47,983 nucleotides of DNA, from positions 1-47,983 of IMG/VR virus record IMGVR_UViG_3300037502_001252; one strand, written 5' to 3'. The position numbers and the translations under genes are program-made. Position 1 is the first letter of the stretch; the number at the start of each line of letters is the position of its first letter. Below, piece after piece: positions 3,459-47,983 of this stretch. Source of the DNA: a virus. Its lineage: Duplodnaviria > Caudoviricetes. The notes beneath the pieces were generated by a model that worked only from the letters and a program-made list of their open reading frames with translations, was not told where the DNA came from and searched no databases.

Positions 3459-3881
3459 ATGATAAACTTGACCTCAAATTCAGCGAAAATGGTTATGCAA
3501 CAGATGACTCCTACGCAGATTATTATGAACGACCCTACTTCGCTGGAAGACGGGTACGAAAACGTAATTGCTGCGCTAGAGCAACGTCTTGATGAAGGTA
3601 ATTCTTTACTAATTCAAAAAGACAATTCTTTGTTGTTTTTAACCAAGATTGATGATGGTGCGGTAGAAGCGCATTTTTATACTGTTGAAGAAGCGCACAA
3701 AGTAGTTAGTGCAGTGCAGCATTTTATTAATGAAATGATTAAAAGCGGGATCAGGGTGATGTACATATATGACTTTGGTGACGCTAATATGGAACGTATT
3801 CTTGGAATGATTGGACTAGATGTGCTTCCTTCTGATAAAGAGCAATACCAATTTATGGTTAACTTGCAAGGAGTAATGTAA
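3459..3881 (+). CDS. Hypothetical protein (start uncertain)
   Basis: 140-aa ORF filling the gap; TAATG overlap with next gene. Confidence 0.6.
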   Translation: MINLTSNSAKMVMQQMTPTQIIMNDPTSLEDGYENVIAALEQRLDEGNSLLIQKDNSLLFLTKIDDGAVEAHFYTVEEAHKVVSAVQHFINEMIKSGIRVMYIYDFGDANMERILGMIGLDVLPSDKEQYQFMVNLQGVM

Positions 3882-5416
3882 TGGGCAAGGTTGTAAGATC
3901 AATTACTCAGCCAATACAAAGAGGTATTGGTCAATTAAACCCATTAAATCCAGGCAGTGCCGTTGGTAAAATAACCCAACAAATTCCTGGGGTTAAAGAA
4001 GCCCAGAACATTGGCACCCAAATATTTCAGCCTTTAGAAAAAGCAGTTGTTCAGCCTGTTAGTCGTGGTTTAGCTAGTCTAGATAAAGCCGTAGGAAATG
4101 CCATCCCAGGGGGGTGGGGTACTATAGGTACTATTGCTGCTTCTATGATTCCAGGTGGACAGTTCGCCGCTTTAGGTCTTAGCAAAACAGCAGCTATGAC
4201 AGGTCTAGGAGCCTTAACAGGTTCTGGTGTGTTACGCCCAGGTCGTAGTTTCAACTTGCAAGGTGCTGTGATGGGCGGCGCTATGGCTTATGGTGCGTCT
4301 AAATTTGCTGATTACGCAGCGGCTGCAGGTGGGGCGGATACAAGCACAATGGCTAAGTTACCTACTTCGGAAGCAGCACCTGAAGTTTTACAACAATTAG
4401 CAGGTCCAGGAGCGCCTGTTGCATCTAATATACCTAGTGCGGCGCCTGAAGTGTTACAGCAGTTAGGTGGCCCAGGAGCATCTAGTTTCCCATCGGTGGG
4501 TCAGCAAGTGATGAGTGGTAATTTTGCAGATGCGGCGCGCCAAATTGGGTCGAGGATAAGTGACATCCCAAGCAATATTTATGATGCAGGGGTAAGCGCA
4601 AAAGACGGTATTGTTAACCTAGTTGATAAAGCCACTACACCTTCTACCTATACTGACTTCGGTAGTAGCTATGCAAAGAATGTTTCGGATATTGGTTCTG
4701 GGATTAAAAACCTCTTAACTGACCCTGCTGCTGCTAAAGCTGCTACTACGGCGACAGGCATTAATCCTATAACAGCAGCTGGTGCTACTCTCTACGGCGC
4801 TACAGGTTTGATGGCTCTTGACGAACAAGAGAAATACCTTAAAGAACAATTAGCTGCCCAACAGATTGCTCAGGCAGATTATGACCAAGCATTGGCAGAT
4901 ATTAACCGCCAGCGGGACTATGCGGCAGATGTCGTAAGACAAAGCCCATTTAATCCTAACCCAGACCGCAGTACCACTGTGGGTGAAACATATTACGGAA
5001 GAACTCCTGAAGAGTCGAACTTATATGCCCGCACCCCGACGAATTTATATGCATATGGTGGATCAGTAGATGACGAATTAGGTGGAGACTATACCGCTAT
5101 GGGTATGGACCAAGGCAATCTACAAAAAGGTTTGTTTGGTTTAGGTTATGCAGCGGGGGGACAACCACGCTTCTTGTCTGGCGGCGGTGATGGTATGAGC
5201 GACTCTATTGTCGCCACAATTAATAATAAACAACCAGCCCGTCTAGCAGATGGAGAGTTCGTCATTCCTGCTGATGTAGTTAGTCATTTAGGTAACGGCT
5301 CTTCCAAGGCTGGTGCAAAACAGTTATATTCCATGATGGACAGAATACGTACAGCTCGGACTGGTACTAAAAAGCAGGGCAAACAAGTTAACCCACGCAA
5401 ATTCATGCCTGCGTAA
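3881..5416 (+). CDS. Putative internal virion (ejection) protein
   Basis: Gly/Ala-rich, hydrophobic stretches; C-terminal GDGMSDSI..RLADGEFVIPADVVSHLGNGSS block; position in tail module. Confidence 0.65.
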   Translation: MGKVVRSITQPIQRGIGQLNPLNPGSAVGKITQQIPGVKEAQNIGTQIFQPLEKAVVQPVSRGLASLDKAVGNAIPGGWGTIGTIAASMIPGGQFAALGLSKTAAMTGLGALTGSGVLRPGRSFNLQGAVMGGAMAYGASKFADYAAAAGGADTSTMAKLPTSEAAPEVLQQLAGPGAPVASNIPSAAPEVLQQLGGPGASSFPSVGQQVMSGNFADAARQIGSRISDIPSNIYDAGVSAKDGIVNLVDKATTPSTYTDFGSSYAKNVSDIGSGIKNLLTDPAAAKAATTATGINPITAAGATLYGATGLMALDEQEKYLKEQLAAQQIAQADYDQALADINRQRDYAADVVRQSPFNPNPDRSTTVGETYYGRTPEESNLYARTPTNLYAYGGSVDDELGGDYTAMGMDQGNLQKGLFGLGYAAGGQPRFLSGGGDGMSDSIVATINNKQPARLADGEFVIPADVVSHLGNGSSKAGAKQLYSMMDRIRTARTGTKKQGKQVNPRKFMPA

Positions 5417-5425
5417 AGGATCAAT

Positions 5426-6364
5426 ATGCCAACATCTACCTCAATATCAACAGCCCTAACAGACGTCCCAGAGGTCTTGCGCCCGTATATTACGGGACCT
5501 GGCGGGGTGCTTCCTACTGCGCAGACTATATTATCTAAAGACTACGCTACTACTTACGGCACTCCACTACAACAAGCAGGTTTAGCAGGGGCAGGGCGCG
5601 TTGCAGGTTTAGCCCCAATGCAGCAGCAAGTAGGTCAGCAGTTAGGAGCGATGGCTACTCCTACACAGTTTGGTGCTGGTACAAGTGCGGCTCAGTTAGG
5701 TGTAGGTTCTACGGCTTTAGGACTTGGCGCTTTGGGTTCTTTGCTTAGCCCTGAGCAGACTCAAGCCTATATGTCGCCGTACGTACAGAATGTTATTGAC
5801 GTTAATAAAGCAGAAGCTCTGCGTGATGCGCAGAAAGGTTTGTTGGCTGGTAATCTTGCTGCGGCGCGTCAAGGCACTTATGGTGGTGCTAGACAGTTAC
5901 TATCTCAGACTGAGCAAGAGCGTAACCTCCAGACTAAGCTAGGTAACATCCAAGCTACGGGTATGCAGAATGCCTTTGATGCGGCACAAAAAGCACAGTT
6001 GGCTGCGGCTCAGGGTTATGGTGCTTTGGGACAGACTTACGGCGCTTTGGGTCAAACTTATGGTCAGTTAGGTACTGCCCAGCAAGCCTCTGATATTGAC
6101 CGCTTGAAGACTCAGGGTGCATATGGTGATCTACAGCGTGGTATCCAGCAACAGCAGTTAGATGCCCAGTATCAAGATTTGATGGCTAAACTTAACTATC
6201 CATTAACCAGCATTGAGACCATGAGCAACTTGGCTCGTGGTGTACCGCTTACACAGACCGCAACTTCTGGCGCTCAGACTACACCTCCGCCAAGCTTTGC
6301 AAGTCAATTAGCTGGTATGGGATTAACGGGTCTTGGTCTTTACAATATGTTTGGGAATCGATAA
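5426..6364 (+). CDS. Putative internal virion (ejection/pilot) protein
   Basis: Q/G/A-rich, YMSPY.QNVID motif, hydrophobic C-terminus LAGMGLTGLGLY. Confidence 0.65.
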   Translation: MPTSTSISTALTDVPEVLRPYITGPGGVLPTAQTILSKDYATTYGTPLQQAGLAGAGRVAGLAPMQQQVGQQLGAMATPTQFGAGTSAAQLGVGSTALGLGALGSLLSPEQTQAYMSPYVQNVIDVNKAEALRDAQKGLLAGNLAAARQGTYGGARQLLSQTEQERNLQTKLGNIQATGMQNAFDAAQKAQLAAAQGYGALGQTYGALGQTYGQLGTAQQASDIDRLKTQGAYGDLQRGIQQQQLDAQYQDLMAKLNYPLTSIETMSNLARGVPLTQTATSGAQTTPPPSFASQLAGMGLTGLGLYNMFGNR

Positions 6365-8070
6365 TGAGCATATTAGGCGCACTTAAACAGCAGACTGAGT
6401 CGATTGACGACTTAGCAAAACTCCCACAAGTCATGATTATGCAGATGGCTCAGAGGGGTCAGATCCGTGAAGATATGCTTGCACCCATCCTTGGGCGTAA
6501 GGCAGAAATGGCTGATGCGGTAGCCCGTATGCAGGCTTTACAGACCGCAGGACAGACACCCCCTACGGTGATGGAGCAGTTGATGACCGCCAATGCGATG
6601 GCTGAACAACCAGAAATGGAAAATATGGGTGTGGCTCAACTACCAGTACCAGAGCGTGAATATGCTGGTGGTGGAATTATTGCGTTTGACGAAGGTGGCG
6701 ATGTAGAAGATGACGACACCGAAGAGCGTATCCGTAAATCTCGTATGGCATCGTTTGGTATGCCCGTGGATCAGTTGTACGCCATGCTTTCTAAAATCCC
6801 AAGTATTCCTAGCCAAGTGGCATCCATGATTCCACAGTCTTATGAGCGTGCCAAGGCTGCCACACAGCCAGCTACCGTATCAGAGACCGCTGAGATTCAA
6901 AGAAGGGGTAACCATAAATACGAAGACATGGTGATTAAAGAGGCTACTCGTCAAGGAGTTGATCCTAATTTAGCCGTCCATGTACTGTACAAAGAAACAG
7001 GGAACTTAAAAGACCCTGAGAATGCTCGATCGAAGGCTGGTGCGTTAGGCGTTATGCAACTAATGCCTAAGACAGCCAAAGAATTAGGCGTAGATCCTTT
7101 AGATCCTATGCAGAATATCCAAGGTGGTATTTCGTATTTGAAGAAGATGTATGCCAAATACCAAGATCCCGTATTAGCCGCCGCAGCGTACAACGCAGGC
7201 CCAGGCAGAGTAGACCGCGCCCTCAAATCTGAAGGTGGTCTTGGTACGCTCCCACGGGAAACTAGAAACTACATGGTTGGATTAGCATCTGGAGGAGAAG
7301 TAAAGCACTTCCAGTATGGCGGTAGCACTATGGGTGGATTTGATGACCCTTATACCGACATTGGTGTTCCAATCGTTCCAGATCTCAGCGATGTCATTGA
7401 TCCAGCTACTGGTCAAACATTATTTAGTGGATATAGTCGACCCTCAAAGAAAACTGAATCCGCTAAAAAAGAACCTGCTAAACCAGCGGCTCCAGCTGCT
7501 CCTGCGTTAACCGAGGAAGAAATAGCTCGATTTACTAGAGAACCCGCACAACCTGAGCGAGACATTTTCGCTGAACTATTGGCCCAACGAGCCGCAGATA
7601 GAGAGGCCATTAAAAAGAGTGCAGCCGAAGATCGTAATTTGGCGTTACTAGCCGCTGGATTGGGAATGATGGGAGGCACATCGCCCTATGCGTTTGCCAA
7701 TATTGGTGCTGGTGGTGCTAAGGGCGTAGAGGCTCTGGCCGCATCTAAAGCCAGAAGAGCCGCTGAATTGAATGCCCTGAATAAATCTGAAACTGAAGCT
7801 CTGTATTATGGAGAAGAGATTAGAAGGCGCAATCAAGTCCAAAGAGCATTAGAGTCAGAGCGGGCGATTGATAATTTATCGGCTTACGATACCAAGTTGC
7901 GTAAAGGCTTCTTTATGGAAGGTGTTACCCCAACGCCTAAACAAATTGAAGCATACGAAAATGCAAAAAGGAATGATCCTATCTATCAAAGACTGGCTAG
8001 AGATGCTAATATTTCAGCAAATCAAGCCCGTCAACCAAATAGAATTAGCTTCTCATCAATCCCAAGGTAA
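6364..8070 (+). CDS. Internal virion protein with soluble lytic transglycosylase (SLT, GH23) domain
   Basis: ET (catalytic Glu), SKAGALGVMQLMPKTA, NIQGG..YL, AAAAYNAGPGRV, PRETRNY. Confidence 0.9.
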   Translation: MSILGALKQQTESIDDLAKLPQVMIMQMAQRGQIREDMLAPILGRKAEMADAVARMQALQTAGQTPPTVMEQLMTANAMAEQPEMENMGVAQLPVPEREYAGGGIIAFDEGGDVEDDDTEERIRKSRMASFGMPVDQLYAMLSKIPSIPSQVASMIPQSYERAKAATQPATVSETAEIQRRGNHKYEDMVIKEATRQGVDPNLAVHVLYKETGNLKDPENARSKAGALGVMQLMPKTAKELGVDPLDPMQNIQGGISYLKKMYAKYQDPVLAAAAYNAGPGRVDRALKSEGGLGTLPRETRNYMVGLASGGEVKHFQYGGSTMGGFDDPYTDIGVPIVPDLSDVIDPATGQTLFSGYSRPSKKTESAKKEPAKPAAPAAPALTEEEIARFTREPAQPERDIFAELLAQRAADREAIKKSAAEDRNLALLAAGLGMMGGTSPYAFANIGAGGAKGVEALAASKARRAAELNALNKSETEALYYGEEIRRRNQVQRALESERAIDNLSAYDTKLRKGFFMEGVTPTPKQIEAYENAKRNDPIYQRLARDANISANQARQPNRISFSSIPR

Positions 8071-24341: not shown

Positions 24342-24514
24342 AGAAAGATCCTTGGGCAAAGTTCAGAGTCAACACGCCAGAGGAAAGAGTTACGTATTTG
24401 GCTGGTTGGTATTTAGGTGTAGGCAGGAGAAGAGGTTGGAAGTTCATTATTGAGAAGTTCAATGCAGAACCAGATGTAGCACAAATAAAAGAAAAAATGA
24501 GGAAATTACGATGA
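24338..24514 (+). CDS. Hypothetical protein (58 aa, not in ORF track)
   Basis: MKKDPWAKFRVNTPEERVTYLAGWYLG...; ATGA overlaps both sides. Confidence 0.65.
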   Translation: MKKDPWAKFRVNTPEERVTYLAGWYLGVGRRRGWKFIIEKFNAEPDVAQIKEKMRKLR

Positions 24515-25962: not shown

Positions 25963-26696
25963 TTCATTATCATGGTTTACCAATTACGCCAAACACGGTA
26001 GCAACTCAAGCCATCCAAGCTGGTCATGCGTTTGTTTCATTTGCCCACCATTCTCAATTAGGGGTTGCTTTGGAGGTATCTCAATCGTTTGCATTGGACA
26101 ATGGTGCTTTTAGTGCTTGGAAGCAAGGCAGTCCTGTGAAGGATTGGACTCAATTTTATGATTGGGCATTGGATTTAAAAAAATTCCCAGCTTGCGATTT
26201 TGCAGTCATCCCCGATGTCATTGATGGCACAGAAGAAGACAACGATGCTTTACTAAAAGACTGCCCATTCCCTTTATGGTTTGGAAGCCCAGTATGGCAT
26301 ATGCACGAGTCGTTGGAACGCTTAGAACGTCTAGCAAATACATATGTTCGTGTCTGCATTGGTAGCTCTGGAGAGTATGCAAACATAGGGACAACCGCAT
26401 GGTGGTCAAGAATTGGGTCAGCTATGCGAATCCTATGCGATGAAATGGGTAGACCAGTTTGCAAACTGCATGGATTACGGATGCTAGATCCTGACATTTT
26501 TACAAAAATCCCATTTAGTTCTACGGATAGCACCAATATCGGTAGGAATGTAAACATTGATAACAATTGGAAAAACGGTAATTATTTGCCACCAACAAAA
26601 GAGTCAAGAGCTTACATTATGAGATCTAGGATTGAGTCCTACAACTCTCCAAGCACATGGAACTTTATACAAATTGAACAGGAAAAATTATTTTGA
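25959..26696 (+). CDS. TGT-fold (DpdA-like) putative base-exchange protein
   Basis: LDNGAFS, IPDVIDG, PVWH, IGSSG, LHGL, STDSTN in TGT order; coupled to queD-like gene. Confidence 0.6.
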   Translation: MIHYHGLPITPNTVATQAIQAGHAFVSFAHHSQLGVALEVSQSFALDNGAFSAWKQGSPVKDWTQFYDWALDLKKFPACDFAVIPDVIDGTEEDNDALLKDCPFPLWFGSPVWHMHESLERLERLANTYVRVCIGSSGEYANIGTTAWWSRIGSAMRILCDEMGRPVCKLHGLRMLDPDIFTKIPFSSTDSTNIGRNVNIDNNWKNGNYLPPTKESRAYIMRSRIESYNSPSTWNFIQIEQEKLF

Positions 26697-27064
26697 AACT
26701 AACGCAAACCTTTTACTTTGATGCAGCCCACACTTTAGATCGAGCTGTTAATGTTTACGACCAGTTGCGGTCAAAGAATATTCATGGCCATACATATCAT
26801 GTAAGTATTTCCATAGAAGGAGAGCCTGAAGAAAATGGAATGGTCAAAGATTTTGGTCACATCAAAAACATTACCGATGAGTTGCACTTGATCCTTGATC
26901 ATCAGTTTTTAAATGAAATACCTGATTTAGGAATCCCTACCCTTGAAAACCTTTGTTTATTCATAGCAAACAAACTAAAAAATATAAAAGGTTTGTGCGA
27001 AGTAATCGTTGAACGCAAAGCGTCTGGTGATAAATGCACACTTGCAATTAAGGAAATGAAATGA
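26693..27064 (+). CDS. queD: QueD/6-pyruvoyl-tetrahydropterin synthase-like T-fold protein
   Basis: FDAAH, HGHTY, GMVKDF, LDHQFLN, PTLEN. Confidence 0.85.
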   Translation: MKLTQTFYFDAAHTLDRAVNVYDQLRSKNIHGHTYHVSISIEGEPEENGMVKDFGHIKNITDELHLILDHQFLNEIPDLGIPTLENLCLFIANKLKNIKGLCEVIVERKASGDKCTLAIKEMK

Positions 27065-31681: not shown

Positions 31682-32944
31682 ATGAATCTAGTCGAAATGT
31701 GGCGTAGTCATCGGGCTGACAATCGTGTCCGCTCAGTCAAAAATCACATCCAGCACAATCTGCTGGGCAGTCGGTTTGATCGGTATCAGTATTTCAATTT
31801 AAGCAATTACAAGGGCATTAAAAGGAATTTTCAAAACTTTGGAGCTTCAGTAGGTGAAGCGATCCGTAATGATGATATCGATGCCATTATTGAATTAGCT
31901 AATGATTCGGTAAGGGTTCGCTTTGATTGGATCGATTTTATTAGTGATCATTTTCATACTGATGTTTTCCGTTGCTACGATTGCGAGTGCATCGAACATG
32001 ACGATAATCGCACTACTTGCTATGACGATTACTCGGTTTGTAGTAATTGTGCGGACGATTATGTATATGACGATGAGCGGGACACTTATGTCCGTGAAGA
32101 GGATTTGAGCTGTAATCGGATTATCGGAGACTATCACTCGTCCAGAGGGCAATTAGGTCATATACCCTCGCTTTATGATGATCGAAAGCCTAGAGTTTTA
32201 TTAGGGCTGGAGCTGGAGCTGGAGATCGATGGGGATATTGAAAATCGTGCCGAGCAGTTGCTAAACGGTGTCGGGAAATATGGCGATTATCAATACGCTC
32301 TATGTGAGCATGATGGATCGCTGGATCACGGTTTTGAAATGGTTACGGCTTACACGGGTTTGGATGTTCATCAAAAGCAATTACGCTTTTTTGAAGATAA
32401 AACCCTAAGGGGTGCGAAGTCTCACGATACCTCGACTTGTGGGCTTCATGTTCACATCTGTAAAGCTGATATGACCACGCTCCACGGTGCGAAAATGATC
32501 CTCTTCATCAATGATCAAGCCAATCAAAAACTAATCCGCTCAATAGCTCGTAGAGATAGCACCTATGGAGCGATTAAGAATAAAAAAGATGAAAAGGATT
32601 GGCTCTCGACTGCGTTGGATCACGAGCAGAAAAAATACCAGCTTATGAGCTTGAATGCGGATCGATACGAAGCCTTGAATTTTAAGAATCCTAAAACGGT
32701 CGAGTTTAGATTGTTTAAGGGTTCGCTCAAGTATGGGACGATCATGGCGTGTTTGGAGTTCACTTACGCAACATGGTTTTTTTGTCGGGATGCGTCCACA
32801 AAAAACCTGACTATCGAGCATTTTCTAAAGTTCATCTGTGCGGATCAAAACCGAAAAGATACGAAGTTTTTACGCTCATTCTTAAAACATAAAGGCTTTA
32901 CTCTTCCCCAATCCAATGTTCATTTATTTAAAAAGGTTGCTTAA
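31682..32944 (+). CDS. Putative amidoligase (COOH-NH2 ligase, Amidoligase_2-like) with Cys-rich N-terminal region
   Basis: GLELELE, HDGSL..GFEMVT, TCGLHVHI, RY.ALN, TVEFRLF. Confidence 0.85.
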   Translation: MNLVEMWRSHRADNRVRSVKNHIQHNLLGSRFDRYQYFNLSNYKGIKRNFQNFGASVGEAIRNDDIDAIIELANDSVRVRFDWIDFISDHFHTDVFRCYDCECIEHDDNRTTCYDDYSVCSNCADDYVYDDERDTYVREEDLSCNRIIGDYHSSRGQLGHIPSLYDDRKPRVLLGLELELEIDGDIENRAEQLLNGVGKYGDYQYALCEHDGSLDHGFEMVTAYTGLDVHQKQLRFFEDKTLRGAKSHDTSTCGLHVHICKADMTTLHGAKMILFINDQANQKLIRSIARRDSTYGAIKNKKDEKDWLSTALDHEQKKYQLMSLNADRYEALNFKNPKTVEFRLFKGSLKYGTIMACLEFTYATWFFCRDASTKNLTIEHFLKFICADQNRKDTKFLRSFLKHKGFTLPQSNVHLFKKVA

Positions 32945-32946
32945 TT

Positions 32947-33885
32947 ATGTGTTTACTCGTTACTCAAAATAAAACCTCTCCGATCCTCTCGGATGCATGG
33001 CTCTCGGATTTCTACTCGTTTAATGGTGATGGTGTCGGGGTTATGTTCGCTCACCATGGGGAGCTGGTGATTAAGAAAATTATCCCGAATACTGCTCAGG
33101 AATTTATCAATTTTTACCGTGAGAATATTCAAGGTCGGGATTGTGCGTTTCATCTGCGGATGCGGACTCACGGGGATATCGATCTTCTGAATTGCCATCC
33201 TTACGAAGTCTTGAATAAAGCCGAGCATGGGATCGATTTGTGGCTTATGCATAATGGCGTTTTATCCACGGGAAATAAAGCGGATACCACGAAATCCGAT
33301 ACTTGGCACTATATCCAAAACTACCTAAAACCCATGCTCTCAGGTAATCCCGATTTTGCGTTTCATCCAGCTTTTAAGGCGTTAATTGAGGATCATATCG
33401 GGGTTAGTAATAAGTTCGTCCTGATGGATAATGAAGGGCGTCAAGTGGTCATCAATCAATCGGCTGGGGTTTATTGGGGTGGCTTGTGGTTGTCGAATAC
33501 TTACGCTTGGAGTGCTAGTAAGTCGGCTAAAAACCATCCTGTAAACCTTAAAAAGGCTAAGAAACAAGTTGCCGAAACCCCAGCTCCAAAGTATGCCTAT
33601 GCTCCCAGCTACGCTCCCAGCTATTACTCAAGCTGGAGCGATCCCGTTGGGGATTACTACAATTATCAGAGCGAGGTGGAAGTCAATCTCGATGATTTGG
33701 AATACATCATCGGGAAGCATACCGTCTCAGTTGATCAGGGATTAAATTTCGTTGCTGAGTTCGGGATCGAGTGTTTCCTAGATTTGGTGGATTATGCGAT
33801 CTCAGGGCAGTTGTCGCTGGATCACTTTCAGCGTGTTATGACTGACTTTAAACTAGCTAGAGAATCATTCCCAGCACTAACTTAA
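32947..33885 (+). CDS. Class II (Ntn) glutamine amidotransferase
   Basis: Cys2 (MCLL), NGDGVG, HLRMRTHG, NCHPY, MHNGVL, SDT. Confidence 0.9.
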   Translation: MCLLVTQNKTSPILSDAWLSDFYSFNGDGVGVMFAHHGELVIKKIIPNTAQEFINFYRENIQGRDCAFHLRMRTHGDIDLLNCHPYEVLNKAEHGIDLWLMHNGVLSTGNKADTTKSDTWHYIQNYLKPMLSGNPDFAFHPAFKALIEDHIGVSNKFVLMDNEGRQVVINQSAGVYWGGLWLSNTYAWSASKSAKNHPVNLKKAKKQVAETPAPKYAYAPSYAPSYYSSWSDPVGDYYNYQSEVEVNLDDLEYIIGKHTVSVDQGLNFVAEFGIECFLDLVDYAISGQLSLDHFQRVMTDFKLARESFPALT

Positions 33886-37299: not shown

Positions 37300-39774
37300 A
37301 TGATTGAGAAAAGTCTATACCAAGCCCCCGTAGGACTCGATGCCATTGAGCCGATTGAAATTGAAATCGAGGATCCTAAATCCGTCTCCATTGAGATGGG
37401 CGGGATGGAAATCGAGATTGAACCCGCGCCCGAAACAGCCGATGATTTCGATGCCAACCTTGCGGAATATATGTCCGAAGGGGAGCTGACCGAACTCGCA
37501 GGGGATTTATTGGGCGATTTTGAAGATGACATCTCTGCCCGTAAAGACTGGATCCAGACCTATGTAGACGGACTAGAGCTTCTAGGAATGAAGATCGAAG
37601 AGAGAACTGAGCCATGGGAAGGAGCCTGTGGAGTCTATCACCCCCTCCTCTCCGAAGCTCTCGTGAAGTTCCAATCCGAGACCATTATGGAGACTTTCCC
37701 TGCCGCAGGTCCTGTGAAGACCGTGATTATTGGTAAGGAAACCCCAGAGAAAAAAGACGCTGCCCAGCGAGTTCAAGATGACATGAATTATCAGTTAACT
37801 GATGTAATGACCGAGTTCCGCCCAGAACACGAGCGCATGATCTGGGGTCTAGGTCTAGCGGGTAACGCCTTTAAGAAAGTCTACTTCGATCCAGGCTTAA
37901 ACCGCCAAGCGTCTATGTTTATTCCTGCCGAAGACATCGTAGTTCCTTACGGAGCTTCCAGTTTAGAGTCCGCGCCCAGAGTCACTCATGTGATGAGAAA
38001 GACCGAAAACGAAGTTAAGCGACTCCAATATGCAGGCTTTTACCGTGATGTAGACTTAGAGACTCCAAGCGGAGCATTAGACGAAGTCGAAAAGAAAATC
38101 GCTGAAAAGATGGGTTTTCGGGCGACCACGGATGACCGCTATAAACTGTTAGAGATGCACGTAGACCTAGACCTTCCAGGCTACGAAGATAAGGAAGACG
38201 GCAAAGAAACAGGGATTGCCCTCCCTTATGTTGTGACGATTGAAAAGGGTACGCAGACTATTCTGTCTATCCGTAGAAATTGGAGACCCGAAGATGAAAC
38301 CAAACAAAAACGGAATCATTTCGTCCATTATGGCTATGTTCCAGGCTTTGGCTTTTACTGCTTTGGCCTTATTCACCTCGTGGGTGCTTTTGCTAAGTCT
38401 GGCACTTCTCTTATCCGACAACTTGTCGATGCTGGTACATTATCGAATCTGCCAGGCGGTTTCAAAACCAGAGGTCTGCGAGTTAAGGGAGACGATACCC
38501 CAATCGCCCCTGGTGAGTTTAGAGACGTAGACGTTCCTTCGGGAGCCATTAAGGACAACTTAATGACGCTTCCCTACAAGGAACCCAGTCAGGTTCTTTA
38601 TTCCTTACTCGGTACGATTGTCGAAGAAGGTCGCAGATTCGCCTCCGCTGGAGATATGAAGATTGCGGATATGTCGGCTAACGCTCCCGTGGGCACGACT
38701 TTGGCGATCCTAGAGAGAACTCTAAAAGTCATGTCTGCGGTTCAGTCCCGTATTCATTACTCCATGAAGCAGGAGCTAAAACTCTTAAAAGACATCATCC
38801 GTGACTACACCCCAGAGGAGTATGACTATGAACCTGAAGAGGGTAGCCCTCGTGCGAAACAGTCGGACTACGACTTGGTTACCGTCATACCTGTTAGTGA
38901 TCCTAATGCGGCAACGATGGCGCAAAAGATCGTACAGTACCAAGCAGTTCTCCAACTGGCTCAGGGGGCGCCACAGATTTACAACCTCCCGCAATTACAT
39001 CGGCAGATGCTCGATGTCTTGGGGATCAGAAACCCGCAAAAACTCATCCCGCTTCAAGATGACCAAAAGCCGCGTGATCCGATTGCGGAGAACATGGATG
39101 CATTAATGGGCAAGCCGTTAAAAGCCTTTATCTACCAAGATCAAGACGCTCACATTACCGCCCATACGAACTTCCTACAGGATCCAACTACGGCAGCGAT
39201 TATTGGTCAAAACCCGATGGCAAACCAAATCACCGCGGCTCTCCAAGCCCATATTGCTGAACACTTTGGATTTAAGTATCGCCAACAGATTGAGCAACAA
39301 CTTGGCGCACCTCTACCCTATCTCAAGGATGAGGAAGACGCTATCCCAGAGGATTATGAAGTTCAGATTTCACGCCTCGTGGCTCAGGCTTCGACTCAGC
39401 TCCTTCAGCAGAATCAGGCTCAGGCGGCTCAAGCTCAAGCCCAACAGCAAATGCAAGACCCAATCATCCAGATGCAGATGCAAGAACTCCAGATTAAGCA
39501 ACAGGAAGTTCAACGCAAGATTCAGAAGGATCAAGCCGATATCGCGCTCCGACAGGAGCAGCTCGATATTGACCGTGAGCGGGTTGAAATCCAAGGCGAA
39601 CTCGAAGGCACTAAGCTAGGCGCCAAGATCGCTAAGGAAAAAGACGAAATGGATCGGAAAGAGCAGATCGAGGGAACCAAAATGGGCATTGAAATGGCCG
39701 CCAAAAAAGACCAGATCGATACCCAAAAAGCCCAAATTATTGCTCAATTAATTGGCAGGAAAGGTAAACAATGA
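37300..39774 (+). CDS. Portal protein (P22-like with long Q-rich C-terminal barrel)
   Basis: 824 aa directly after terL; GNAFKKVYFD, FGFY.FGLIH. Confidence 0.88.
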   Translation: MIEKSLYQAPVGLDAIEPIEIEIEDPKSVSIEMGGMEIEIEPAPETADDFDANLAEYMSEGELTELAGDLLGDFEDDISARKDWIQTYVDGLELLGMKIEERTEPWEGACGVYHPLLSEALVKFQSETIMETFPAAGPVKTVIIGKETPEKKDAAQRVQDDMNYQLTDVMTEFRPEHERMIWGLGLAGNAFKKVYFDPGLNRQASMFIPAEDIVVPYGASSLESAPRVTHVMRKTENEVKRLQYAGFYRDVDLETPSGALDEVEKKIAEKMGFRATTDDRYKLLEMHVDLDLPGYEDKEDGKETGIALPYVVTIEKGTQTILSIRRNWRPEDETKQKRNHFVHYGYVPGFGFYCFGLIHLVGAFAKSGTSLIRQLVDAGTLSNLPGGFKTRGLRVKGDDTPIAPGEFRDVDVPSGAIKDNLMTLPYKEPSQVLYSLLGTIVEEGRRFASAGDMKIADMSANAPVGTTLAILERTLKVMSAVQSRIHYSMKQELKLLKDIIRDYTPEEYDYEPEEGSPRAKQSDYDLVTVIPVSDPNAATMAQKIVQYQAVLQLAQGAPQIYNLPQLHRQMLDVLGIRNPQKLIPLQDDQKPRDPIAENMDALMGKPLKAFIYQDQDAHITAHTNFLQDPTTAAIIGQNPMANQITAALQAHIAEHFGFKYRQQIEQQLGAPLPYLKDEEDAIPEDYEVQISRLVAQASTQLLQQNQAQAAQAQAQQQMQDPIIQMQMQELQIKQQEVQRKIQKDQADIALRQEQLDIDRERVEIQGELEGTKLGAKIAKEKDEMDRKEQIEGTKMGIEMAAKKDQIDTQKAQIIAQLIGRKGKQ

Positions 39775-39956
39775 CCGAATTTGAAATCCTAGTAAAACAA
39801 TTAGACGATAAGGCTGAACAATTAAAGAGTGCTGTGGTGGTGGGGAATATGGACCACATCCAGTACCAAAGGGTTTGCGGTGAGATCCGAGGTCTGCTCA
39901 TTGCAAAGGGTTACATATTAGACCTCAAAGATAGATTGGAGAAATCTGATGAGTGA
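39771..39956 (+). CDS. Small conserved head-module protein
   Basis: YQRVCGEIRGL motif. Confidence 0.7.
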   Translation: MTEFEILVKQLDDKAEQLKSAVVVGNMDHIQYQRVCGEIRGLLIAKGYILDLKDRLEKSDE

Positions 39957-40359
39957 ATTACTAATCGGGACGAACCCCGATGATGTAAGTGAAGTAACTG
40001 TGTTGCCAGAATCCAGCGAGGACAAGGCAAAACAGCTCCCCAAGCCATCTGGATACCGCATTTTATGTGCGATTCCTGATGTTGAAAGGGAATATGAAAG
40101 CGGAATTGTAAAGGCAGACGAAACTGTCCGATACGATGAATTACTAACTACAGTCCTATTCGTTATCGATTTAGGCCCTGATTGTTATAAGGATTCAACC
40201 CGTTTTCCCAGCGGTCCGTGGTGTAAAAAAGGTGACTTTATCTTGGTTAGACCCAACGCTGGAACCCGTTTAGTCATACATGGTCGAGAATTTAGGATCA
40301 TCAATGATGATTCTGTCGAAGGCGTAGTAGACGATCCCCGTGGTATTAAACGTAAATAG
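39949..40359 (+). CDS. GroES-like co-chaperonin
   Basis: P.GYRIL, ESGIV mobile loop, LGPDCY, PWCKKGDFIL, RIINDDSVEGVV. Confidence 0.8.
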   Translation: MSELLIGTNPDDVSEVTVLPESSEDKAKQLPKPSGYRILCAIPDVEREYESGIVKADETVRYDELLTTVLFVIDLGPDCYKDSTRFPSGPWCKKGDFILVRPNAGTRLVIHGREFRIINDDSVEGVVDDPRGIKRK

Positions 40360-40367
40360 GAGAGATT

Positions 40368-41315
40368 ATGGAAAACTATAAATTTCCAGATGAAGTCGAA
40401 GAGAAAGTGGACGAAACCACTGACAAATCGGATGACATCGAAATTGAAGTGGAGGACGACACCCCACCTCAAGATAGAAACAGAACTCCTTCCGAGCCTG
40501 AGTTTGTAGAAAAGCTCGAAAAGGATGAATTAGCCCAGTATTCCAAAGAGGTTCGAGACAAAATCGATGCCTTTCGGAAGATTTATCACGATGAACGCAG
40601 ACGTGCAGACGCTGCCGATCGTGAGCGCCAAGAAGCTCTGGCTATAACCAAAAAGTTATACGAAGAGAATAAGGCTCTTAAAGGAAAGGTCACTTCCACC
40701 GAAGCCGTTGCTGTTGATTCGTTCAAAAACAGCGCCGAGCAGGAATTGGCTATGGCTAAAAAAGAGTATCGGGATGCTTATGAGTCTGGCGATGCTGAAA
40801 AATTAGTCGAAGCTCAAGAGAAAATGACCGCCGCCAAGATCAAATTGGATCGTGCATTTGACGCTACGGAAAACCTAAACCGTAGAAAAGCTTTACAAGA
40901 GCAAGAAAATGAAGTAAAAATACCTCAGCAGTCGGAACAACCCGTTGTTCGAGACCAAAAAGCCGCAGCTTGGCAGGAACGAAATCCTTGGTTTGGTCAG
41001 GACGATGAAATGACAAGTCTAGCTCTAGGGCTACACGAAAAGCTTGTTAAGGAAAATGGCATGGCGTATGCCACGACTGACGAGTATTACAAACGTATAG
41101 ACGAAACTATGCGTAAGAGGTTTCCTGAGAATTTTGAGGAGACCATCGAAGAAAAAGCCAAGGTTCGGACGAAACCGAGTACCGTAGTTGCCCCGGCAAA
41201 CCGTAGCACCTCTTCGAAAAAGGTAAAGCTAAACACTTCCCAGCTTGCGATAGCGAAGAAGTTAGGTTTGACACCAGAGCAGTACGCCCTTGAACTTTTA
41301 AAAATGGAGGCCTAA
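40368..41315 (+). CDS. Putative capsid scaffolding protein
   Basis: Acidic coiled coil; W.ERNPWFG; C-terminal AKKLGLTPEQYA; between portal and capsid genes. Confidence 0.75.
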   Translation: MENYKFPDEVEEKVDETTDKSDDIEIEVEDDTPPQDRNRTPSEPEFVEKLEKDELAQYSKEVRDKIDAFRKIYHDERRRADAADRERQEALAITKKLYEENKALKGKVTSTEAVAVDSFKNSAEQELAMAKKEYRDAYESGDAEKLVEAQEKMTAAKIKLDRAFDATENLNRRKALQEQENEVKIPQQSEQPVVRDQKAAAWQERNPWFGQDDEMTSLALGLHEKLVKENGMAYATTDEYYKRIDETMRKRFPENFEETIEEKAKVRTKPSTVVAPANRSTSSKKVKLNTSQLAIAKKLGLTPEQYALELLKMEA

Positions 41316-41316
41316 C

Positions 41317-41766
41317 ATGGCTGAAAAGAGAATTAACCGTGATGCCGATACACGCGCAACAAGCGAGCGTCCTATGCAGTGGGCGCCAGCAGAATTGCTA
41401 CCTGAGCCAGTAAAACAGCCTGGGTATGCGTATCGTTGGATTCGTACTTCAACCTTGGGTACTATGGATCCTCGCAATCTCTCAGCAAAAATGAGAGAAG
41501 GTTGGGAGCCAGTCCGAGTTGAGGAACAACCAGAAATGCAACTGCTAATCGATCCAAATAGTCGCTTTAAGGACAATATTGAGATCGGTGGGTTATTGCT
41601 TTGCAAGACTCCAGAAGAACTCGTTGACCAGCGTAATGCACATTATGTGAAGCAAAGTGAGTCTCAGACGGAAGCTGTGGACAATAACTTTATGCGCCAA
41701 AGTGACGCAAGGATGCCACTCTTTAAAGAGCGGAAATCTTCGACTAGCTTTGGAAAAGGTAACTAA
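41317..41766 (+). CDS. Conserved head-module protein
   Basis: YRWIR..REGWEPV..GGLLLCK pattern. Confidence 0.7.
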   Translation: MAEKRINRDADTRATSERPMQWAPAELLPEPVKQPGYAYRWIRTSTLGTMDPRNLSAKMREGWEPVRVEEQPEMQLLIDPNSRFKDNIEIGGLLLCKTPEELVDQRNAHYVKQSESQTEAVDNNFMRQSDARMPLFKERKSSTSFGKGN

Positions 41767-42411: not shown

Positions 42412-43326
42412 ATGGCTATTTCACGCGCACAACTACTGAAAGAGCTGCTCCCAGGCTTGAACGCTTTGTTCGGTCTTGAGTATGCTCGCTATGGTGAAGA
42501 ACACAAAGAGATCTATGAAACTGAGACCTCTGAGCGTTCCTTCGAAGAAGAAACCAAACTGTCTGGCTTCTCAGCTGCACCAGTCAAAAACGAAGGCTCT
42601 GCCATCGCTTATGACAATGCACAAGAAGCATTCACAGCACGTTATAACCATGAGACCATCGCTCTCGGCTTCTCCCTAACGGAAGAGGCAATCGAGGACA
42701 ACTTGTATGACAGCTTATCCGCTCGTTATACCAAGGCTTTGGCTCGTGCTATGGCTTACACCAAACAGGTTAAAGCTGCTGCTGTGTTGAACAACGGTTT
42801 CACCAACTCTGCCGCTTATTACGGTGGTGACGGTGTACCTTTGTTTGCGACTAACCATCCCTTGGTTTCTGGTGGCACTAACAGCAACACTCAGTCTACC
42901 GCTGCTGATTTGAACGAGACTTCCTTGGAAGCCGCCGTTATTCAAATCGCTGCTTGGACAGACGAGCGTGGTCTGTTGATCGCTGCCCGTCCTAAGAAAT
43001 TGATCGTTCCTCCATCACTCCAGTTCGTGGCTACTCGTTTGCTCGAGACACAACTTCGTGTTGGTACGACCGACAACGATATCAACGCTTTGGTAAACAA
43101 TGGTTCGATTCCAGAAGGTTATGCAATTAACCACTTCTTGACCGATCCTAATGCTTACTTCCTCACCACCGATGTTCCAAACGGTATGAAGCACTTTATT
43201 CGTACCCCATTGGCACAATCGATGGATGGCGATTTCGATACTGGTAACGTACGTTACAAGGCTCGTGAGCGTTATTCGTTTGGCTGGTCTGATCCCCTCG
43301 GTATGTGGGGTTCACAAGGCGCTTAA
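42412..43326 (+). CDS. Major capsid protein
   Basis: MAISRAQLLKELLPGLNALFGLEY; PKKLIVPP.L; RYKARERYSFGWSD; followed by terminator. Confidence 0.9.
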   Translation: MAISRAQLLKELLPGLNALFGLEYARYGEEHKEIYETETSERSFEEETKLSGFSAAPVKNEGSAIAYDNAQEAFTARYNHETIALGFSLTEEAIEDNLYDSLSARYTKALARAMAYTKQVKAAAVLNNGFTNSAAYYGGDGVPLFATNHPLVSGGTNSNTQSTAADLNETSLEAAVIQIAAWTDERGLLIAARPKKLIVPPSLQFVATRLLETQLRVGTTDNDINALVNNGSIPEGYAINHFLTDPNAYFLTTDVPNGMKHFIRTPLAQSMDGDFDTGNVRYKARERYSFGWSDPLGMWGSQGA

Positions 43327-44503: not shown

Positions 44504-45274
44504 ATGTCAGAACCACTACAAGCACAGGGTTCGTTTAATCTAGCTGGCAGGAGGATCATGCTTGGTCTTCCTGCTTATGACTTTAAAGTCTCTATCAAAT
44601 TAGCTATTTCACTGGCTCAGTTTTGCGTAGAAGCTCCTAAGCACGGAGTCGAGATTCAGATCTGCAATATTTCTGGATGCTCGGTTGTTTCCCGTGTGCG
44701 CAATCTAATTGCTAAAGACTTCTTGGCCTCAGAATGCACGGATCTAATGTTTATTGACTCGGATATTAACTTTAATCCGCAAGACATTTTCCGCTTGATG
44801 GCTTGGAATATGGACCCCAAGAAAGGGATTGTAGGTGGTGTGCCTGTTGCCCGTAAGAAAGGTCAGGTCTATATCTCTACCTTAGATCAAGATGAAGAAG
44901 GCGGTATCTATATGAACGCCTACGGTCTAGTTAAGGCTAAACGCCTAGCAACCGCATTTATGTTGATCCGTAGAGAAGTATTTGAAACTCTCAGAGATAA
45001 TCATCCTGAGTGGAAATACCACGATGACCGAGTTGTAGACGGACATCCAGACAAATTCTGTTATTCGTTCTTTGACTTCAAATCCACCCCAGAAGGCTAT
45101 GTAGGGGAAGACTATACATTCTGCGACCGTGCTAGAGAGCATGGCTACGAAGTATGGATTGACCCCACGATTAAGCTCAATCACATGGGTATTACCGAGT
45201 TTGAAGGATCTTTTGGAGAAGAATATCTGTACCCATTATTACGTCCAGTAGACGCTAATAAAGGAGCTGCATAA
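44504..45274 (+). CDS. GT-A fold (GT2-like) glycosyltransferase
   Basis: RN.I...FL...LMFIDSDI (DxD), FMLIRREVFE, GEDYTFC.RA...G..VWIDP...H.G. Confidence 0.8.
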   Translation: MSEPLQAQGSFNLAGRRIMLGLPAYDFKVSIKLAISLAQFCVEAPKHGVEIQICNISGCSVVSRVRNLIAKDFLASECTDLMFIDSDINFNPQDIFRLMAWNMDPKKGIVGGVPVARKKGQVYISTLDQDEEGGIYMNAYGLVKAKRLATAFMLIRREVFETLRDNHPEWKYHDDRVVDGHPDKFCYSFFDFKSTPEGYVGEDYTFCDRAREHGYEVWIDPTIKLNHMGITEFEGSFGEEYLYPLLRPVDANKGAA

Positions 45275-45594
45275 TGGCTAAGACTCCCGCATGGCAACGC
45301 AAAGAAGGAAAGAATCCTAGTGGCGGTCTAAACGCAAAAGGTCGTGCTTCCTATAATGCAGCCAATCCTGGGAAGCCTGGACTCAAGCGTCCACAGCCAG
45401 AAGGTGGCTCAAGACGAGATTCCTTCTGCGCCCGCATGAAGGGCATGAAGAAAAAACTTACCAGCGCCAAAACAGCCAACGATCCAAACTCACGGATTAA
45501 TAAGTCCTTACGGGCTTGGAACTGTAAAGAAGGCGGTTCTGTTCGTGGTGGAGGGTGTGAGATACGTGGAAAGACTAAAGGAAGGATAGTGTAA
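45274..45594 (+). CDS. Small basic protein with GG tag and RGKTKGRIV tail
   Basis: AWQRKEGK..GGLN.KGR; RRDSFCARM; SLRAWNC. Confidence 0.8.
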   Translation: MAKTPAWQRKEGKNPSGGLNAKGRASYNAANPGKPGLKRPQPEGGSRRDSFCARMKGMKKKLTSAKTANDPNSRINKSLRAWNCKEGGSVRGGGCEIRGKTKGRIV

Positions 45595-45965
45595 TGTTAG
45601 GAATAGCCGCACGTATGGCAGCAAAAATGGCTGCTAAAAAAATGGGCAAACAGGCTTCAAAAGAAGCAGACGAAATCCCACGCTATACACAATCTAAGGG
45701 TTTTAAGGATCTTGAGAAGGCTCAAAAAAATAGTGGACCAGAAGCCGTTATTAGAGATATGGAAAAAGGCATCGCTGCTGTTTCAATCCCTACCGCTATT
45801 CAGTACGCTGCTAATAAACCATCGCCTGAAGTAAAAGAAGAAGCACCCCCACCTAAAGAAGAATCAAGCGAAAATAGTTATAAACGTGGAGGCAAAGTAT
45901 CCTCTGCTTCTAAACGCGCCGATGGTTGTTGTATCAAAGGTAAAACTAAAGGGCGGATTGTTTGA
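45594..45965 (+). CDS. Small protein with YKRGGKV...KGKTKGRIV tail
   Basis: ORF, TAATG overlap. Confidence 0.75.
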   Translation: MLGIAARMAAKMAAKKMGKQASKEADEIPRYTQSKGFKDLEKAQKNSGPEAVIRDMEKGIAAVSIPTAIQYAANKPSPEVKEEAPPPKEESSENSYKRGGKVSSASKRADGCCIKGKTKGRIV

Positions 45966-46210
45966 TGGAGATGATGATATGGAACATAGTCCTAACTGTA
46001 CTCGTGGCAATTATGGGATTTGTTCTTAAAGAAAAGTTTGCCGAGATTAATCGGCTTGGTATCTTGTTGAATAGAACTAGAGAGGAGGTCGCTCGTGACC
46101 ACATCACTCGTGCAGAAGTCCATAGAGATATGGAAAAAATTATGGAACGCTTTGACGCAGGCATTAATCGCCTTGAGGCTAAGATTGACGAACTTGGTAA
46201 ACGGAATTAA
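45962..46210 (+). CDS. Small membrane-anchored coiled-coil protein
   Basis: N-terminal TM helix, then RLEAKIDEL; ATG at 45965 is an alternative start. Confidence 0.7.
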   Translation: MMEMMIWNIVLTVLVAIMGFVLKEKFAEINRLGILLNRTREEVARDHITRAEVHRDMEKIMERFDAGINRLEAKIDELGKRN

Positions 46211-46212
46211 AA

Positions 46213-46743
46213 ATGCCTTCCGTAAGTAAAAAACAACACAATTTCATGGCGGCTGTGGCTAATAACCCTAAGTTTGCTAAAAAAGTTGGAGTTAAATCAT
46301 CTATTGGAGAAGAGTTTATGAAAGCAGACAAAGGACGTAAATTCAAGGCTGGTGGCTTAAAAGAAGTTGATTCTGATAGCAATCCAGGTTTAGCTAAATT
46401 ACCAACTGAAGTGAGGAACAAAATGGGTTACATGAAAAAAGGTGGCGAAGCAAAGGCTATGGTTAAAAAAGAAGTCGAGTTCATGAAGAAAAAGGGCGCT
46501 CCAAAGTCCATGATTAAGCATGAAATGGCTGAAGCCAAAGGCATGAAAAAAGGCGGTTACGCTAAAGGCGGTATGTCGGAGTGCAAAACGATTGCCAAGA
46601 AAGAAGTAAAGTCCCACGAAAAGCGTATGCACAAGATGGCCAGCGGTGGCAAGGTAGCCCAATTATCTAAGGCAAATGGCGTTGCCACTAAAGGCAAAAC
46701 CAAAGGCAAAATGGTCAAAATGGCTTATGGCGGAAAGTGCTAA
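46213..46743 (+). CDS. Lys/Met-rich basic protein with six xxGG motifs
   Basis: MPSVSKKQHNFMAAVANNPKFAKKVG start; repeated MKKGG. Confidence 0.8.
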   Translation: MPSVSKKQHNFMAAVANNPKFAKKVGVKSSIGEEFMKADKGRKFKAGGLKEVDSDSNPGLAKLPTEVRNKMGYMKKGGEAKAMVKKEVEFMKKKGAPKSMIKHEMAEAKGMKKGGYAKGGMSECKTIAKKEVKSHEKRMHKMASGGKVAQLSKANGVATKGKTKGKMVKMAYGGKC

Positions 46744-46744
46744 T

Positions 46745-47356
46745 ATGAAAAAGAAAGTCCGCAAATTCCAAGAAGGCGGCTTTAGTAAAGAGCAAGAAGA
46801 GTGGTTGGGTGGTGCTGATCGCACCGATCCATACATTCTGGCTCGTATGCGTAGAGCTGTTCCTGATAAAGTCACGACTACCACGACTGAAGTGGGCGAT
46901 GATTCCCCAGCTGGTAAATCTGGTTATGGCGAACAAAATGAATTGCCACAGTTTGCAGAAGTTAAAAAGACTGTAACTCGTGTGTCTGCTCCTAAACCAG
47001 CCGTAAAACCGTCAGCTCCACAGACTATCCCTCAGGAAGAAAAAGATCGCAGAGCCGAGTTAGAGAAAAAACAGGCTTTAATTAATGTTAGCCCAGAGGA
47101 CTACCTTCCGGGCGTTGGTATGGTTAAAGGTCTCTTAAAGAAGGGTCTGACCCGTTTAATGAAGCCAGGCATGAAGACATACACCCCTGCCGAGTTTGAA
47201 GCGATGACCCCTAAATTGGGTCGTGAGAATCTTAAATTGGGTATGAAAAAAGGCGGGTCTGTTAAAAAGATGGCTAGTGGTGGAAAGGTATCATCCGCAT
47301 CTAAACGTGCCGATGGTTGTGCTATTAAGGGTAAAACCCGTGGAAGGATTGTGTGA
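46745..47356 (+). CDS. Protein with FQEGG N-terminus and MKKGG...KGKTRGRIV tail
   Basis: Start reassigned to ATG 46745. Confidence 0.75.
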   Translation: MKKKVRKFQEGGFSKEQEEWLGGADRTDPYILARMRRAVPDKVTTTTTEVGDDSPAGKSGYGEQNELPQFAEVKKTVTRVSAPKPAVKPSAPQTIPQEEKDRRAELEKKQALINVSPEDYLPGVGMVKGLLKKGLTRLMKPGMKTYTPAEFEAMTPKLGRENLKLGMKKGGSVKKMASGGKVSSASKRADGCAIKGKTRGRIV

Positions 47357-47983
47357 TGCCTAATTACCGTAAACCTACTGAAAAAGAAACTGAAAAGCTC
47401 AATAAATCCCGCAAGATGATGGTTGAGGGTATTGAGGGAGAAAAAGACCTTCTTTCCAAAATTTCGACAACGATGGCTAAAGATGCACGTGATCAAATTC
47501 GTGCTGGCAAAGCCTTACGGGAAACTGTACCTTCTGTTGCCAGAGAAGGCGAGGCATACGAATATGCTGGTTACAAAAAAGGTGGCAAAGTGAAAAAAAT
47601 GCGTAAGTTTGAAGAAGGCGGTTTATCATCGTCTGGGTTTGGAGCTGGTCTTAGTTCAATGCGAGATTCAAGCAATAAAAAAACTTCGGGTTTTTCAGAG
47701 GCACACGATAAAGCGCAAAGACTTGGTCTTGAACCTGGATCAGAAGATTATCGTAAGGTTGTTGATCAACAAATGCGTAATCCATCAGAAAGAAGTCGCA
47801 ATCAGGCGCTTGAAAAAGTAAAAGATACTGCCGTAAGAATGGCTGGTCGATTAGCAGATATGACACCTCAGGGTCGTTTGACTAGAGGTGCTGTAGAAAT
47901 GGCAAGAAGACCATCTAGAGCCTTAGAAGGCGAATCTTCTTTTGAGCAAGAAATGGGTATGAAAAAAGGCGGTAAGGTTAAAT
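47356..47983 (+). CDS. Basic protein with YKKGGKV, FEEGG, MKKGGKV motifs (3' truncated, not in ORF track)
   Basis: Manual translation MPNYRKPTEKE..., open to window end; TGATG overlap. Confidence 0.75.
   Translation, partial: MPNYRKPTEKETEKLNKSRKMMVEGIEGEKDLLSKISTTMAKDARDQIRAGKALRETVPSVAREGEAYEYAGYKKGGKVKKMRKFEEGGLSSSGFGAGLSSMRDSSNKKTSGFSEAHDKAQRLGLEPGSEDYRKVVDQQMRNPSERSRNQALEKVKDTAVRMAGRLADMTPQGRLTRGAVEMARRPSRALEGESSFEQEMGMKKGGKVK

Follow-up and report, generated by a model that had tools for sequence, protein, structure and literature searches.

Why should a row of small basic proteins with unrelated bodies share the same short peptides? The question is raised by IMG/VR virus record IMGVR_UViG_3300037502_001252, a single virus record whose 48-kb stretch (47,983 nucleotides; estimated completeness 76%) is the window analysed here, and which ends, beyond the major capsid gene, in an array of short open reading frames (ORFs), five of which carry the peptides. 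An earlier note, made from the sequence alone, had proposed one portable signal that addresses interchangeable bodies to the procapsid, or else a GG cleavage site in the manner of adenovirus and African swine fever virus (ASFV). We find that the array proteins combine a body, an [FYM]xxGG motif (hereafter the joint), and a conserved C-terminal tail, and that they are likely internal virion cargo. The parts of the array, with positions in the window, are as follows.

45274..45594 (+ strand): basic ORF of 106 amino acids with a DUF6321 body (PF19846, E 1e-18), net charge +20
45523 (+ strand): C-variant joint of ORF 45274
45544-45591 (+ strand): short tail variant of ORF 45274
45594..45965 (+ strand): ORF of 123 amino acids, joint at 45879, full tail at 45900-45962
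45962..46210 (+ strand): untagged ORF of 82 amino acids inside the array, hydrophobic N-terminus, weak PHROG matches
46213..46743 (+ strand): ORF of 176 amino acids, six joints at 46342, 46432, 46543, 46558, 46636, and 46720
46669-46716 (+ strand): internal tail of ORF 46213, with one further motif after it
46745..47356 (+ strand): ORF of 203 amino acids, joints at 46766, 47243, and 47270, full tail at 47291-47353
47356..47982 (+ strand): ORF of 209 amino acids, cut by the contig end, joints at 47572, 47608, and 47959

All motifs and tails that the earlier note had quoted for the five ORFs were located in them, and the synonymous divergence that it had reported between the two long tails was found again, with 10 of 20 shared-residue codons differing. 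Its motif form held for F, Y, and M, the C variant (45523) being a minor form, and its four basic tails stand in that four ORFs have the tail core, with the correction that the tail of ORF 46213 is internal. Net charges of the array ORFs range from +10 to +29. The body of ORF 45594 is unlike all others among 100 tagged bodies, the N-terminal module of ORF 46213 matches PHROG ‘virion structural protein’ families (phrog_22033, E 3e-7; phrog_25121, E 2.8e-6), and ORF 46745 has an alternative upstream ATG at 46676, overlapping the preceding gene, and a tail whose final codons precede the next start and resemble a ribosome-binding site. The homologue of ORF 47356 in the related locus L254 ends in a tail; the window copy's own end lies beyond the contig, and no metagenome match extending the contig beyond 47983 was found. 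ORF 45962 is not part of the tag system.

The motif is far more frequent than composition predicts. Measured against 2000 shuffles that kept each protein's composition, the five array ORFs hold 13 copies of [FYM]xxGG versus a shuffle mean of 0.84 (maximum 6), and the tail core, observed in four array ORFs, occurred in at least two of them in 4 of 20000 shuffles, which excludes the K/G-rich composition that the earlier note had named as a possible explanation. The motif is also not confined to the array, since ORFs 3881 and 6364 of the ejection module hold 7 copies versus 1.0 expected; 13 other virion-module ORFs show no excess (4 versus 4.0), and 13 non-virion ORFs have none (1.7 expected). 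Relatives were sampled as 80 capsid loci, 26 of which extend to the next conserved gene, an SU10-type adaptor; by capsid protein identity the cultured relatives (22 records) include MinM2, Pag-Yong1, and Pra-JY27 (71%), HTVC027P (66%), HTVC023P (65%), CRP-901/902 (56%), and Caulobacter RW (40%). Among the relatives, motif copies number 175 versus 32 expected in the capsid-to-adaptor zone (244 ORFs), and 45 versus 56 in the terminase-to-capsid zone, where there is no excess. Because 515 motif copies comprise 363 distinct 15-mers, GG codon pairs are near background, and the tails of one genome differ at 212 of 445 shared-residue codons (48% synonymous), the motif acts at the protein level and not as a DNA site.

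Across relatives, the bodies vary while the tail is kept. Between the capsid and adaptor genes, one to five tail-tagged ORFs lie in every one of the 26 loci that reach the adaptor, and tail matches fell in capsid-side loci in 104 of 105 cases. Counted per genome with a tail profile, as the earlier note had advised, 26 of the 27 records of the window clade have one to five copies; the other is a contig that is 65% complete. The bodies are unrelated: 100 tagged bodies form 54 clusters, and none of 94 within-locus pairs are alike. Eighteen of the 27 records were chosen via capsid or array genes, and some of them fed the tail profile; the nine genomes chosen independently, through the GE-FV domain described below, all have two to five tail copies each. 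Pag-Yong1, of which MinM2 and Pra-JY27 are near-identical isolates, has one copy, and its ORF UMO75986.1 bears the full cassette. One N-terminal segment occurs in 82 ORFs, and what comes right after the motif is one of at least four modules (42, 16, 4, and 4 ORFs; 16 unassigned); the first 73 residues of ORF 47356 are shared with the L254 homologue, the first joint leading to a second body here and to the tail there. Modules are thus exchanged exactly at the joint. In a PHROG scan of 103 representative ORFs (from 107 cluster representatives of 168, four tail-gene ORFs being left out), 74 had no family match, 13 matched ‘virion structural protein’ families via one N-terminal module, the same as that of ORF 46213, and no named enzyme activity was found among the array modules. 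At L172:9020-10306, an ejection-block protein ends in a DUF6321-like module fused after a joint, which ties array modules to ejection genes.

The tail itself, from a consensus of 47 copies, has invariant Ala, Ser, Arg, Asp, Gly, Gly, Lys, Thr, and Gly behind a GG, and in most copies it closes the protein or nearly does so. In HTVC023P, two ORFs have looser tail-like ends, found by pattern. In three regions of the sister clade (L339:10552-12315, L340:11757-13961, L341:7350-8623), joint-punctuated basic proteins occupy the same place and share some modules, with different C-terminal endings that are a possible second tag type. Since these proteins have the joint with other C-termini, joint and tail are two signals of different age, the joint older than the clade-specific tail. 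A second role is suggested for the end of the tail: its last Gly is GGA or GGG in 103 of 140 tails, whereas the Gly four codons before it is so encoded in 6 of 140, and in 114 of 138 cases the next gene starts no more than 3 nucleotides from the tail ORF's stop, so that the last four codons likely serve as the next gene's ribosome-binding site. Such a tail-borne site would let new bodies slot into the operon without breaking translation. At L254:7459-7931, and at equivalent positions in many loci, two conserved small genes between two adaptor genes carry tail-like words, one N-terminal and one C-terminal, and these genes may be the source of the tail.

The joint recurs in the ejection module at the other end of the window, where the following features were annotated.

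3881..5416 (+ strand): first ejection-module protein, 511 amino acids, joints at 5048, 5147, and 5171
5144..5413 (+ strand): GE-FV domain, C-terminal in ORF 3881, starting with the joint motif
6364..8070 (+ strand): ejection-module protein, 568 amino acids, PF01464 at E 1.7e-22
3881, 5426 (‘DNA ejection protein’), 6364 (SLT), and 8074 (LPD38): the four ejection-type genes, forming the end of the virion block

In ORF 6364 the lytic transglycosylase (SLT) domain is flanked by paired joints (6661 and 6685; 7282 and 7309), and in ORF 3881 the motif is the invariant start of GE-FV, a domain of 90 residues with an invariant Gly-Glu. GE-FV homologues made up 7999 of 8000 scored candidates and 9612 clusters (50% identity, E<=0.001). 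The domain turned up in 36 of 40 records, and none of the 27 virus records with a completeness of at least 90% lacked it; 18 of the survey records were chosen through the domain itself, and of 18 chosen otherwise 16 have it. HTVC023P was missed by the survey, yet its gp79 aligns. Joints are enriched in the GE-FV gene (131 proteins; 309 versus 45 expected) and in the gene two places further on (82 versus 10) and depleted in the upstream tail genes (14 versus 39), and in ejection proteins the usual residue after F/Y/M is Ala (366 of 639). The GE-FV profile matched the tape measure protein gp16 of mycobacteriophage Douge (8zdo) twice (E 4.3e-11), the RW copy matched 209 phage records (tape measure protein in 35 of 40 among the matches listed), and the C-terminal domain of ORF 3881 matched phrog_3547 at E 0.027; judged by sequence comparison, GE-FV of ORF 3881 is homologous to a tape measure protein domain. 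Its AlphaFold model had a predicted local distance difference test (pLDDT) score of 64, with residues 1-16 mostly below 50; a fold search with this model gave no PDB match, and in BFVD gave 8 matches at E<=0.001, all uncharacterised or unnamed proteins.

Siphophage tape measure proteins (Douge gp16, lambda gpH/gpHC; PMC12617516) thus resemble the window's protein in their C-terminal region, with its homologous joint and GE-FV domain. Here, by difference, the domain closes a protein of the ejection module in a phage of podovirus type, HTVC023P-type phages being described as podoviruses in PMC9599517. In lambda gpH, a GEFV word is flanked by motifs at 733 and 778. PMC12617516 (2025) estimates the gpH maturation cut near 710 (range tried 691-730) and calls its site and catalyst unknown; a cut at 733 would yield 79.6 and 12.7 kDa, compatible with, though not exactly, the 78 and 14 reported there.

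From these observations we propose that the tail likely docks the small basic proteins on the assembling procapsid, and that the joint, common to predicted ejection proteins, would then be cut just after its aromatic residue, freeing the body. Candidate partners lie in the head module of the window.

35795: terminase
37300..39774 (+ strand): portal protein
39949..40359: GroES-like protein
40368..41315 (+ strand): scaffold-like protein, by position and composition
41317..41766: conserved ORF of 149 amino acids between the scaffold-like and capsid genes
42412..43326 (+ strand): major capsid protein
44504: glycosyltransferase

The tail receptor might be the inner face of the capsid, with the major capsid protein as candidate, or the portal vertex, and the portal protein is also a candidate receptor of GE-FV by analogy with crAss001 gp45 (below). 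No solved structure related to the capsid protein or to the tail was found. The tail as a copy of the scaffold's C-terminus, of the 80alpha/SaPI CpmB type, was considered and rejected: ORF 40368 is without tail core and motif and its C-terminus is unlike the tail, and the tail core had no match in scaffold-like ORFs of the 80 capsid loci. Presence in the virion, the tail receptor, the cut, its position, and its enzyme are all steps that we infer. That the proteins are virion cargo is probable; a cut at the joint falls somewhat short of an even chance, and the full combination of cargo, C-terminal loading label, and cut after the aromatic residue is offered tentatively, with more doubt than confidence.

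The nearest functional model is the T4 internal proteins IPI-III, divergent small basic proteins whose capsid targeting sequence is removed by gp21 (PMC9026906). In both systems, divergent small basic proteins that vary between relatives have one short peptide in common, with a (here putative) site at the junction of label and body. The T4 label, however, is an N-terminal propeptide, whereas the label here is C-terminal, about 20 residues long, and unrelated in sequence, no gp21-like protease was found, and the joint also occurs inside proteins and in ejection proteins. The tag system thus works like the T4 targeting sequence in mirror image, in that the C-terminal label would load and the joint then free the body, and it is not a member of that system.

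Other cargo systems offer partial likenesses. Encapsulin cargo-loading peptides are short, C-terminal, and borne by unrelated cargo of an HK97-type shell; the window phage differs in having a portal and a terminase, and its peptide is, as far as we are aware, unrelated in sequence. GG sites of the adenovirus protease and of the ASFV polyprotein likewise lie in a recurring motif on basic core-like proteins, but the adenovirus consensus has a hydrophobic residue two before GG, whereas here the aromatic residue or Met stands three before the first Gly.

A parallel for the joint is crAss001 gp45, a virion cargo protein by mass spectrometry and cryo-electron microscopy whose domain binds the portal (PMC10172136). 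In gp45, as here, small modules are strung by x-A-x-G-G joints (9 x[AKR]xGG versus 3.2 expected) and a Gly-Glu-containing domain (PF25725) follows directly after a joint; here, by difference, the modules are in separate genes, each with its own tail. Both pieces of gp45 resolved in that paper, 214-245 and 425-552, lie between motifs, and the second, portal-bound one starts at the motif's Ala425. Since this piece keeps GG, a cut after GG is excluded there; what remains is an uncut site or cleavage behind the motif's first residue. We treat the parallel as analogy only. PF25725 had no match in the window, an hhalign probability of 0.1%, and no match in the fold search with the pLDDT-64 model, no homology to gp45 modules was detected among the 22 largest of 189 array-module clusters, and an Atlas score of 0.84 is a lead only. 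Taken together, the idea of one portable signal on interchangeable bodies is partly supported: the statistics, the relatives, and the same joint in ejection-module proteins, tape measure proteins, and gp45 all speak for a portable, protein-level signal, though the signals number two.

Where, then, would a cut fall? The F/Y/M set fits a single hydrophobic pocket. Given that pocket, the following residue that is mostly Ala, and the start of the gp45 piece, a cut, if any, would likely fall just after the aromatic residue or Met and not after GG. Cleavage at GG in the adenovirus/ASFV manner, as the earlier note had suggested, is not borne out: no cysteine protease of that type was found among the ORFs scanned in window and relatives, the spacing misfits, and the portal-bound piece of gp45 retains GG. 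A host protease and GE-FV itself are candidate enzymes.

Several results weigh against this proposal. The tail profile finds nothing in nine sister-clade genomes, HTVC023P, CRP-901, and RW, and its absence from the sister clade, CRP-901, and RW means that the tail is not needed family-wide. Co-evolution of the tail with its own genome was rejected, the apparent likeness within genomes (0.21 versus 0.32) being accounted for by kinship (within 0.199; 0.162 for capsids at least 97% alike; 0.303 below 89%). Weaker look-alikes of the motif also occur in relatives, at the C-terminal end of the terminase and within a tail protein, and joints are found at the very N- or C-terminus of proteins and only 5 residues from one another, so that cutting there would release little. 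No protease was found in 24 window ORFs (Pfam/PHROG; many ORFs are unannotated and the window is 76% complete), in line with the earlier note, which had seen no obvious prohead protease, nor in 56 ORFs mostly from two cultured relatives, nor, apart from a SprT-like gene, in 58 ORFs of one complete relative. That gene was rejected as the cutting enzyme, being in one genome only among 176 sequences, as was ORF 41317, the only head ORF folded, as a hidden protease: its model (pLDDT 77, with a confident core of about 90) had no fold match at E<=0.001 and no PDB match. GE-FV is without an invariant Ser/Cys/His set, the match of lambda gpH to its profile is weak, and homology of GE-FV or the array modules to gp45 was not detected. 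The main text of PMC10172136 handles gp45 as one uncut chain and contains ‘cleav’ or ‘proteol’ 0 times, and no virion proteomics of any relative was found in the literature.

An uncut joint in the same cargo role is nearly as likely as a cut one. Here [FYM]xxGG would be a docking or turn element that binds GE-FV, portal, or neck and strings the cargo, with the tail as second anchor, a reading that is possible if doubtful. It accounts for the missing protease, for motifs at extreme termini and in close tandem, and for a motif that is the invariant start of GE-FV and ordered in portal-bound gp45 (PMC10172136). It fits less well with a joint placed exactly between body and tail, like a propeptide junction, with the lambda gpH cut near such motifs (PMC12617516), and with an AlphaFold model that does not confidently pack the motif on the domain. 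A broader version of the cleavage proposal, unlikely on present evidence, is that [FYM]-A-x-G-G and GE-FV together mature all that tailed phages eject, as a single ancient system covering the tape measure proteins of siphophages, crassvirus cargo, and the ejection proteins of podophages. It would need no prohead protease, the cut after the aromatic residue possibly being made by GE-FV, and to it the window family would have added a 20-residue plug-in label with a ribosome-binding site that loads any body.

Quite unlikely is that the tail is a basic peptide that binds or condenses DNA and carries the ribosome-binding site, its proteins entering with DNA or acting in the cell with no specific capsid receptor; the high net charges, the GGA/GGG bias with its nearby starts, and the many array modules without PHROG family or named enzyme activity are as expected on this account, but the invariant Ala, Ser, Asp, Gly, and Thr point to a shaped binding groove rather than to charge, and the ribosome-binding-site effect is confined to the last four codons. 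Still less probable are accessory cement or decoration proteins at the head-tail junction whose tail binds the neck or outer surface and which are not ejected: the adaptor gene does adjoin the array and the two inter-adaptor genes do carry tail-like words at one terminus, whereas the joint is common to ejection-module proteins and depleted in tail genes, and internal proteins typically have basic bodies of low complexity. A DNA-level recombination site or a Lys/Gly-rich compositional artefact is very improbable, for although modules swap at the motif, its diverse 15-mers, near-background GG codons, synonymously divergent tails, and the shuffles all count against it.

Several neighbouring features deserve mention. 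The stretch between the array and the tail genes is absent from the window. The GroES-like co-chaperonin of the head module (39949-40359) is kept in cultured relatives, and the large terminase of this family has, close to its end (37208), a conserved look-alike of the motif that may be an unrelated structure. In one relative only, SprT-like and metallophosphoesterase genes are inserted directly after the capsid gene (L343:13245-14551). By eye, a long DNA-methyltransferase-like ORF with an overlapping 145-amino-acid frame, followed by a QueD-like ORF (24511-27064), forms a possible DNA modification block, and 31682-33885 holds a pair of genes, one resembling an amidoligase and the other a glutamine amidotransferase. 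No description of motif, tail, or GE-FV domain was found in the literature, most subscription journals being outside the search.

This phage family is very abundant, with about 13000 IMG/VR stretches matching the window capsid protein and the 9612 GE-FV clusters, and has cultured relatives. If the cargo proposal is true, each genome packs and delivers its own set of one to five small proteins of unknown role, in the way that T4 delivers its anti-restriction internal proteins, and such proteins could be listed straight from sequence by their tag. The tape measure link offers a precise, testable position for the lambda gpH cut discussed in PMC12617516. Should the ancient maturation system also be real, that cut would be at Phe733, and a portable capsid-loading tag would be gained.

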